Positions 59,928 to 62,879 of a DNA stretch of 64,000 bases are shown piece after piece (the first letter of the stretch is position 1; each line of letters opens with the position of its first letter). A model generated the notes under the pieces. It was not told the DNA's origin and ran no database searches. It saw only the letters and a program-made list of their open reading frames with translations. This stretch comes from Escherichia coli (GTDB lineage: Bacteria; Pseudomonadota; Gammaproteobacteria; Enterobacterales; Enterobacteriaceae): assembly GCF_003334335.1 (NCBI RefSeq), contig NZ_QOWQ01000004.1. One strand, 5' to 3'. The translations under genes were made by a program, and so were the position numbers.

Positions 59928-60281
59928 AATTCGGATCTCAAGGAAATCGCAATGGTCGGCGAACTGCCACCCGCAGGTGCTGTGAATCCGAGTATAAAGA
60001 GGCGGTAGTTTAAATTTTGACTAATCTTGGGATTCGTTGAGAAAGGTGATTATCACCATGCGAATTAACGAAGTTTTTACGGAGGGAAACAATCTCTAGA
60101 CCATCCTTAACGATTCAGCCACTTTTTTATGTTGCTTTTTTGTAAACAGATTAACACCTCGTCAAAATCCTGCTATTCTGCCCGTTGCGGTACTGGGCAT
60201 TTACCCTACAAACTGCTGTCTCACAGGAGCGTGAAGAGAATCGCCTGCCGCACTATGACAATGAGAGCGAGGAGAACCGTC

Positions 60282-62879
60282 GTGCTAGAAGAATACCGTA
60301 AGCACGTAGCTGAGCGTGCCGCTGAGGGGATTGCGCCCAAACCCCTGGATGCAAACCAAATGGCCGCACTTGTAGAGCTGCTGAAAAACCCGCCCGCGGG
60401 CGAAGAAGAATTCCTGTTAGATCTGTTAACCAACCGTGTTCCCCCAGGCGTCGATGAAGCCGCCTATGTCAAAGCAGGCTTCCTGGCTGCTATCGCGAAA
60501 GGCGAAGCCAAATCCCCTCTGCTGACTCCGGAAAAAGCCATCGAACTGCTGGGCACCATGCAGGGTGGTTACAACATTCATCCGCTGATCGACGCGCTGG
60601 ATGATGCCAAACTGGCACCTATTGCTGCTAAAGCACTTTCTCACACGCTGCTGATGTTCGATAACTTCTATGACGTAGAAGAGAAAGCGAAAGCAGGCAA
60701 CGAATATGCGAAGCAGGTTATGCAGTCCTGGGCGGATGCCGAATGGTTCCTGAATCGCCCGGCGCTGGCTGAAAAACTGACCGTTACTGTCTTCAAAGTC
60801 ACTGGCGAAACTAACACCGATGACCTTTCTCCGGCACCGGATGCGTGGTCACGCCCGGATATCCCACTGCACGCGCTGGCGATGCTGAAAAACGCCCGTG
60901 AAGGTATTGAGCCAGACCAGCCTGGTGTTGTTGGTCCGATCAAGCAAATCGAAGCTCTGCAACAGAAAGGTTTCCCGCTGGCGTACGTCGGTGACGTTGT
61001 GGGTACGGGTTCTTCGCGTAAATCCGCCACTAACTCCGTTCTGTGGTTTATGGGCGATGATATTCCACATGTGCCGAACAAACGCGGCGGTGGTTTGTGC
61101 CTCGGCGGTAAAATTGCACCCATCTTCTTTAACACGATGGAAGACGCGGGTGCACTGCCAATCGAAGTCGACGTCTCTAACCTGAACATGGGCGACGTGA
61201 TTGACGTTTACCCGTACAAAGGTGAAGTGCGTAACCACGAAACCGGCGAACTGCTGGCGACCTTCGAACTGAAAACCGACGTGCTGATTGATGAAGTGCG
61301 TGCTGGTGGCCGTATTCCGCTGATTATCGGGCGTGGCCTGACCACCAAAGCGCGTGAAGCACTTGGTCTGCCGCACAGTGATGTGTTCCGTCAGGCGAAA
61401 GATGTCGCTGAGAGCGATCGCGGCTTCTCGCTGGCGCAAAAAATGGTAGGCCGTGCCTGTGGCGTGAAAGGCATTCGTCCGGGCGCGTACTGTGAACCGA
61501 AAATGACTTCTGTAGGTTCCCAGGACACCACCGGCCCGATGACCCGTGATGAACTGAAAGACCTGGCGTGCCTGGGCTTCTCGGCTGACCTGGTGATGCA
61601 GTCTTTCTGCCACACCGCGGCGTATCCGAAGCCAGTTGACGTGAACACGCACCACACGCTGCCGGACTTCATTATGAACCGTGGCGGTGTGTCGCTGCGT
61701 CCGGGTGACGGCGTCATTCACTCCTGGCTGAACCGTATGCTGCTGCCGGATACCGTCGGTACCGGTGGTGACTCCCATACCCGTTTCCCGATCGGTATCT
61801 CTTTCCCGGCGGGTTCTGGTCTGGTGGCGTTTGCTGCCGCAACTGGCGTAATGCCGCTTGATATGCCGGAATCCGTTCTGGTGCGCTTCAAAGGCAAAAT
61901 GCAGCCGGGCATCACCCTGCGCGATCTGGTACACGCTATTCCGCTGTATGCGATCAAACAAGGTCTGCTGACCGTTGAGAAGAAAGGCAAGAAAAACATC
62001 TTCTCTGGCCGCATCCTGGAAATTGAAGGTCTGCCGGATCTGAAAGTTGAGCAGGCCTTTGAGCTAACCGATGCGTCCGCCGAGCGTTCTGCCGCTGGTT
62101 GTACCATCAAGCTGAACAAAGAACCGATCATCGAATACCTGAACTCTAACATCGTCCTGCTGAAGTGGATGATCGCGGAAGGTTACGGCGATCGTCGTAC
62201 CCTGGAACGTCGTATTCAGGGCATGGAAAAATGGCTGGCGAATCCTGAGCTGCTGGAAGCCGATGCAGATGCGGAATACGCGGCAGTGATCGACATCGAT
62301 CTGGCGGATATTAAAGAGCCAATCCTGTGTGCTCCGAACGACCCGGATGACGCGCGTCCGCTGTCTGCGGTACAGGGTGAGAAGATCGACGAAGTGTTTA
62401 TCGGTTCCTGCATGACCAACATCGGTCACTTCCGTGCTGCGGGTAAACTGCTGGATGCGCATAAAGGTCAGTTGCCGACCCGCCTGTGGGTGGCACCGCC
62501 AACCCGTATGGACGCCGCACAGTTGACCGAAGAAGGCTACTACAGCGTCTTCGGTAAGAGTGGTGCGCGTATCGAGATCCCTGGCTGTTCCCTGTGTATG
62601 GGTAACCAGGCGCGTGTGGCGGACGGTGCAACGGTGGTTTCCACCTCTACCCGTAACTTCCCGAACCGTCTGGGTACTGGCGCGAATGTCTTCCTGGCTT
62701 CTGCGGAACTGGCGGCTGTTGCGGCGCTGATTGGCAAACTGCCGACGCCGGAAGAGTACCAGACCTACGTGGCGCAGGTAGATAAAACAGCCGTTGATAC
62801 TTACCGTTATCTGAACTTCAACCAGCTTTCTCAGTACACCGAGAAAGCCGATGGGGTGATTTTTCAGACTGCGGTTTAA
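60282..62879 (+). CDS. acnB: aconitate hydratase B / 2-methylisocitrate dehydratase
   Basis: GTG start inside ORF 60129..62879 ([16 protein letters not shown]); aconitase family Fe-S region. Confidence 0.95.

Follow-up and report, generated by a model that had tools for sequence, protein, structure and literature searches.

The stretch of DNA analysed here, referred to as the window, comprises 64,000 nucleotides of the Escherichia coli chromosome (NCBI RefSeq assembly GCF_003334335.1, contig NZ_QOWQ01000004.1). It is collinear with the chromosome of E. coli K-12 MG1655 at a constant offset (K-12 coordinate = window position + 71333), and it carries three plus-strand genes, acnB (b0118), secM (b0097) and cra (fruR; b0080), whose coding sequences begin with a GTG codon. 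These extend from 60282 to 62879 (acnB; 865 codons plus stop), from 36372 to 36884 (secM; 170 codons plus stop) and from 16695 to 17699 (cra; 334 codons plus stop). An initial annotation had proposed that all three genes start at these internal GTG codons, and that a mechanical list of open reading frames (ORFs), which reports the longest frames in the window, extends them too far upstream. The three proposed starts equal those of the K-12 reference annotation (NC_000913.3) and of RefSeq, and are as such already known and nothing new. The initial interpretation is therefore supported, although two of its side details, concerning the upstream frames of secM and cra, proved to be wrong.

The acnB gene, which encodes aconitate hydratase B / 2-methylisocitrate dehydratase and has the minus-strand gene yacH upstream of it, starts at the GTG at 60282-60284. 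This codon corresponds to K-12 position 131615, the start of the coding sequence in NC_000913.3, and is annotated as the start in a RefSeq strain of 100% identity; likewise, an 81-mer spanning the K-12 start maps to position 60282 of the window. The start context is identical to that of K-12, with the GTG at the same position and a product of 865 amino acids (aa), while the acnB region as a whole differs from that of MG1655 by a few substitutions, none of them relevant, and is 100% identical to that of other E. coli strains. Every one of the 5426 complete E. coli genomes was matched by an 801-bp query around the start, in several cases at 100% identity.

To compare candidate starts, the energy of the duplex with the 3' end of 16S rRNA (the anti-Shine-Dalgarno, or anti-SD, duplex) was computed for every in-frame candidate, against a window background with a mean of -2.2 kcal/mol in which approximately 1% of positions reach -8 kcal/mol. 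The Shine-Dalgarno (SD) sequence of acnB, CGAGGAGA, is located at 60268..60275 on the plus strand, 6 nt before the GTG, and its duplex energy of -8.9 kcal/mol falls in the top ~1% of this background. The in-frame ATG codons upstream gave considerably weaker duplexes, with +0.3 kcal/mol and no SD at ATG 60129, -2.9 kcal/mol with a 15-nt spacer at ATG 60255, and +1.3 kcal/mol at ATG 60261. In each of acnB, secM and cra the best duplex among the in-frame candidates was that of the annotated GTG (-8.9, -6.5 and -6.8 kcal/mol, respectively), so that SD inspection, one of the checks put forward in the initial annotation, comes out in favour of the GTG throughout.

Retapamulin profiling, which had been put forward alongside it, gives the same answer: Table S2 of the INRI-seq study (PMC9825163), which combines in vitro data with the in vivo data of Meydan et al. 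2019, contains peaks at K-12 positions 131615, 107705 and 88028, i.e. at all three GTG codons, both in vitro and in vivo. The acnB peak at 131615 reached 412-493 in 5/5 replicates in vitro and 191 in vivo and was scored TRUE in both data sets, and the in vitro template included both of the nearby in-frame ATGs (60255 and 60261). The bioRxiv supplement of Meydan et al. and the TetRP supplement contained nothing on acnB, secM or cra. Additionally, the chain of AcnB in PDB entry 1L5J comprises 865 aa, begins with MLEEYRK (which reflects the deposited sequence) and aligns to the longer mechanical frame only from residue 53 of that frame onwards.

That longer frame opens at ATG 60129 and comprises 916 aa, i.e. 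the 865 codons of acnB preceded by 51 in-frame codons (60129..60281, plus strand) which consist of non-coding promoter and 5' untranslated region (UTR) DNA. A consensus scan places a sigma-70 promoter at 60151..60179 on the plus strand, within the 51 codons, with the -35 hexamer TTAACA at 60151-60156, a 17-nt spacer and an extended -10 element (TG-n-TATTCT, the hexamer at 60174-60179). Transcription start sites (TSSs) were taken from the Cappable-seq table of Ettwiller et al. (PMC4782308), in which the dominant plus-strand TSS of acnB lies at K-12 131519 (window 60186) with a score of 159, and which lists no plus-strand TSS between 129500 and 131519. The -10 element ends 7 nt before this TSS, and the promoter block is conserved across the Enterobacteriaceae. 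The resulting 5' UTR (60186..60281, plus strand) is 96 nt long, which is also the length obtained from the values of Benjamin and Massé (an mRNA of 2761 nt less a 3' UTR of 67 nt and an ORF of 2598 nt; PMC4150767); promoter, TSS and leader of K-12 acnB thus agree with published data. The main TSS lies 57 nt downstream of ATG 60129, which is consequently absent from the main transcript, and the remark in the initial annotation that the acnB extension would pass through the promoter is therefore borne out.

It might nonetheless be supposed that translation of the 916-aa frame from ATG 60129 yields the main form of AcnB or a minor isoform with an N-terminal extension, since the 51 codons are open and begin with ATG in K-12 and E. 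albertii as well as in the window. Against this, the main transcript begins downstream of the ATG, no SD precedes that codon, and the promoter hexamers occupy the frame itself. Furthermore, the codon at this position is GTG in the divergent E. coli strain E600003, whose six substitutions in the extension are split 2/2/2 over the codon positions. In other genera whose AcnB proteins are 91-96% identical, the upstream frame is either interrupted by stops or shifted, and a profile search with the 51-aa extension peptides of acnB and of secM returned no family match. We consider translation from ATG 60129 to have practically no chance of being correct.

The start of acnB was further compared across the Gammaproteobacteria by scanning one genome per species (80 loci). 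Homology to the 865-aa AcnB in tblastn searches began at residue 1 in all 80 species, and 77 of these carried GTG at the start; the remaining three, all Pasteurellaceae, have an ATG 2-3 codons upstream instead. A GAGGAG/GAGGA SD was retained in each of the 77 species with a GTG start. An in-frame stop codon was found 4-79 codons upstream of the start across species, and in Citrobacter, whose AcnB is 96% identical, it lies 6 codons upstream of the GTG with no start codon between the two. Among the sampled species, the 51-codon ATG frame was present only in Escherichia. Alignment of the leaders revealed that the promoter and 5' UTR are well conserved but carry indels of 1, 2 and 12 nt, some of them thus non-triplet, a pattern expected of non-coding DNA. 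Pseudomonas acnB and one relative of 71% identity also carry a GTG start, while five more distant AcnB relatives (56-69% identity) start with ATG. Within the gene, synonymous variation is depressed over codons 1-8 (0.71 versus about 1.4 bits). The rare CTA codon for Leu2 was observed to be mostly conserved.

A second possibility concerns the leader itself, in which ATG 60255 or ATG 60261, which precede the GTG by 9 and 7 codons, could serve as an additional start, possibly in a leaderless manner from a minor TSS. Both ATGs are carried on the acnB mRNA, and a minor Cappable-seq TSS indeed falls on the A of ATG 60255 (K-12 131588), although its score is 14.9 where the main TSS reaches 159. No usable SD precedes either ATG, and both are shifted out of frame by a 1-nt indel in Citrobacter, Kluyvera and Pseudocitrobacter, where codon -6 is a stop. 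Moreover, the INRI-seq construct that contains both ATGs produced its strong scored peak at the GTG. An additional start at either leader ATG is thus highly improbable, if somewhat less so than translation from ATG 60129. Another minor Cappable-seq TSS falls on the G of the GTG at 60282 (score 10.4); this signal and that at 60255 may represent weak internal starts, processing events or artefacts.

Two further features of the acnB upstream region were observed. The first ~55 nt of the 5' UTR (60186-60240; GCGGTACYGGGCATTTACCCTACAAACTGCTGTCTCACAGGAGCGTGAAGAGAA) are almost invariant across the genera of the Enterobacteriaceae, with the indels located just downstream; the leader had no Rfam match and folded no better than shuffled sequences (z = -0.3). 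Additionally, a Cra-box-like sequence, GCTGAATCGTTAAG, is present on the minus strand at 60106-60119, approximately 74 nt upstream of the acnB TSS, with one mismatch to RSTGAAWCSNTHHW, and is nearly invariant across the Enterobacteriaceae. A scan of the window with the Cra-box pattern returned as many matches as expected by chance, which leaves conservation as the sole support for the acnB site. An exact match to the Cra box (RSTGAAWCSNTHHW) occurs at 50508-50521, upstream of pdhR.

The secM gene (secretion monitor, the cis-regulator of secA translation) is identical to that of K-12 over 1.1 kb (a 1101-bp locus) and encodes the same 170-aa precursor, with no difference detected. Its GTG at 36372-36374 corresponds to the annotated start at K-12 position 107705, and it is preceded by the SD CGGGAUGGC (36357-36365, plus strand; -6.5 kcal/mol, 6-nt spacer). 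The mechanical ORF of 221 aa adds 51 codons to these 170 (36219..36371, plus strand), and these represent non-coding lpxC-secM intergenic and promoter DNA. While the length of 51 codons given in the initial annotation is correct, the frame does not begin with ATG as was stated there: the codon at 36219 is TTG, and no in-frame ATG occurs within the extension. The dominant TSS of secM, at K-12 107668 (window 36335) with a score of 307 (PMC4782308), is located downstream of both TTG 36219 and the in-frame GTG 36297, and defines a 5' UTR of 37 nt (36335..36371, plus strand). The retapamulin peaks at 107705 measured 13-20 in vitro and 152 in vivo and were scored TRUE in both (PMC9825163). The 24 nt from 36352 to 36375 of the leader were found to contain a 7-codon upstream mini-ORF (ATG ATC GGG ATG GCA ATA ACG TGA), which begins 17 nt after the main TSS, lacks an obvious SD and has a TGA stop that overlaps the GTG start (GTGA).

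Conservation of the SecM protein begins at Ser2, the curated homologues measure 164-171 aa, and the NCBIfam equivalog NF002799 covers residues 3-169. It was considered whether secM might instead start at TTG 36219, at GTG 36297 or, further downstream, at ATG 36441 (Met24), the last of which would yield a conventional short signal peptide. All three codons are in frame with secM, and SecM versions of 174-219 aa have been called automatically in several genomes. None of the three is preceded by an SD (-2.8 kcal/mol for TTG 36219, +1.9 for GTG 36297 and -1.5 for ATG 36441), however, and the two upstream candidates precede the main TSS, while the retapamulin signal is found at 107705. Residues 2-23 hardly vary between genera, so that Met24 cannot be the start, and the NCBIfam profile begins at residue 3; the sequence before the GTG, by contrast, shows no conservation. 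In the over-extended SecM calls of Salmonella and Enterobacter, the start position is occupied by Val and the residues upstream are unrelated to the E. coli extension; the Val implies a valine codon at that position in these genomes too, consistent with GTG. A secM start elsewhere is accordingly most improbable, being placed between the two acnB alternatives considered above.

The cra gene, which encodes the LacI-family catabolite repressor/activator, is identical to K-12 cra/fruR over 1.5 kb and yields the same 334-aa product without any difference. The GTG at 16695-16697 equals the annotated start at K-12 position 88028, and its SD, CAAGGGGC, lies at 16683-16690 on the plus strand (-6.8 kcal/mol, 4-nt spacer). 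The initial annotation had listed cra among the over-extended genes, which does not hold, as an in-frame TAA at 16641-16643, 18 codons upstream of the GTG, closes the frame, the first start codon after it is GTG 16695, and the mechanical ORF of 334 aa already begins there. The next in-frame starts are located 11, 29 and 38 codons downstream of the GTG. The retapamulin peaks at 88028 are weak in vitro and 5.1 in vivo, and TRUE in both (PMC9825163). N-terminal proteomics, the other approach named in the initial annotation, also points to the GTG in this gene: in the TRAINSPOTTER N-terminomics table (PMC13245402), the peptide MKLDEIAR is reported for cra at GTG 88028-88030 and is flagged as GTG/near-cognate with Ribo-RET and INRI support. 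The equivalog NF008452 aligns Cra residues 1-329 to profile positions 1-329, and PDB entries 8JFF and 1UXC start at residue 1, the latter (the DNA-binding domain) aligning to residues 1-58. Only a start at the GTG yields the full LacI-type N-terminal DNA-binding domain of Cra.

Taken together, we regard it as very nearly certain that acnB, secM and cra represent ordinary, already annotated GUG initiation, and that the longer frames of acnB and secM run through promoter and leader DNA that is open by chance. According to this interpretation, the SD located 4-6 nt upstream positions the 30S subunit on the GUG in each gene, and initiator tRNA decodes this codon as fMet, the products being AcnB (865 aa), the SecM precursor (170 aa) and Cra (334 aa). 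The main acnB transcript starts at 60186 from the promoter inside the extension, which excludes ATG 60129 from this mRNA, while the main secM transcript starts at 36335, downstream of TTG 36219. At this composition, 51 codons in a row remain open with a probability of ~5-9%; such runs are hence ordinary, and the matching lengths of the acnB and secM extensions are a coincidence. In this regard the three genes resemble other bacterial cases of GUG initiation with longest-frame over-extension, in which a strong SD likewise precedes a near-cognate start and the open frame upstream is unrelated.

Several observations weigh against this interpretation, in particular where minor products are concerned. 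In secM, weak TSSs (scores 2-5) are listed further upstream (PMC4782308), among them a minor plus-strand TSS at 107495 that precedes TTG 36219 and one at 107563 that would carry GTG 36297, and read-through from lpxC would carry the secM extension as well. In acnB, the presence of the two in-frame ATGs on the mRNA (as noted above) must likewise be counted. Furthermore, N-terminal peptides of AcnB and SecM were not found among the TRAINSPOTTER entries listed in the available portion of that table (PMC13245402), and the INRI-seq sheet used (PMC9825163) covers annotated start sites only, which leaves room for weak extra peaks elsewhere; within the portion of the INRI-seq supplements covered, with its annotated sites, no peaks were recorded at the rival codons (131462, 131588, 131594, 107552 and 107630). 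We nevertheless infer that neither rare read-through or upstream transcripts nor the two leader ATGs (60255 and 60261) give rise to a minor extended isoform. Neither of these ATGs is preceded by an SD, and both fall outside the frame in several genera.

The practical consequences pertain to annotation. A longest-ORF or ATG-only rule would add 51 spurious residues each to AcnB and SecM, while Cra, on an ATG-only track, would begin at Met39 (16809) and lose 38 residues, namely the DNA-binding helix-turn-helix. Wrong starts of this kind would corrupt signal-peptide, domain and promoter inferences. Public protein sets contain many over-extended calls, such as Pseudomonas AcnB of 871-903 aa and SecM of 174-219 aa, with Val at the true start. 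For the three genes discussed here the reference annotation and the public start-site data are already correct, and the value of the starts as such is one of annotation hygiene only. Compared to GUG initiation in general, only the deep retention of the acnB GTG appears to stand out.

This retention coincides with a predicted pairing site for RyhB on acnB (60262..60286, plus strand), for which RNAduplex returned -24.7 kcal/mol with RyhB nt 32-60. The RyhB core, taken from NC_000913.3, is predicted to pair with acnB from -20 to +5, with one helix (60262-60274) covering the SD and a second, 8-bp helix (60279-60286; GUCGUGCU:AGCACGAC) covering the GUG start. Replacement of the start by AUG, UUG or CUG is predicted to cost this duplex 5.8 kcal/mol. 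In published work, in-line probing, toeprinting and a RyhB 'mutstart' mutant support pairing at the acnB initiation region. The GUC flanking the GUG is conserved in the Enterobacterales, Vibrionaceae and Aeromonas, but not in Shewanella, Rheinheimera or Pseudomonas.

These observations raise the possibility that selection has kept the acnB GUG, beyond simply tolerating it, because the start codon takes part in regulatory pairing with RyhB (helix GUCGUGCU:AGCACGAC), and the presence of GTG in 77 of the 80 species and in Pseudomonas, the depressed synonymous variation in codons 1-8, the predicted weakening of the duplex by other start codons and the experimentally supported pairing are all consistent with it. 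Conversely, the GTG is retained in Pseudomonas and the Rheinheimera group although the flanking GUC is missing there, a conserved RNA structure was not found around the start, and the degree of retention may not be unusual for GTG starts. Pseudomonas uses PrrF rather than RyhB, and the GTG therefore probably predates RyhB pairing. That RyhB pairing originally caused the GTG to be retained is made less likely, as Pseudomonas and the relative of 71% identity keep the GTG in a different context and more distant relatives have ATG. A conserved RNA structure at the start was also considered and rejected: RNAalifold (65 species) returned a 4-bp helix of -1.2 kcal/mol without compensatory changes, and Rfam returned nothing. 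We thus hold selection for the RyhB contact to be a tentative and rather unlikely explanation, and we are equally doubtful of the broader proposal that the acnB GUG, kept in the Enterobacterales, Vibrionales, Aeromonadales, Alteromonadales and Pseudomonas, is a selected regulatory feature and not a neutral near-cognate start. On this proposal, the GUG would occupy the middle of the 8-bp helix with the RyhB core in those lineages that carry RyhB. If this were true, an AUG start would weaken the iron-responsive translational repression of acnB by about 6 kcal/mol, and the conservation of the acnB GTG together with its overlap with the RyhB site would offer a small, testable point on why some near-cognate starts persist.

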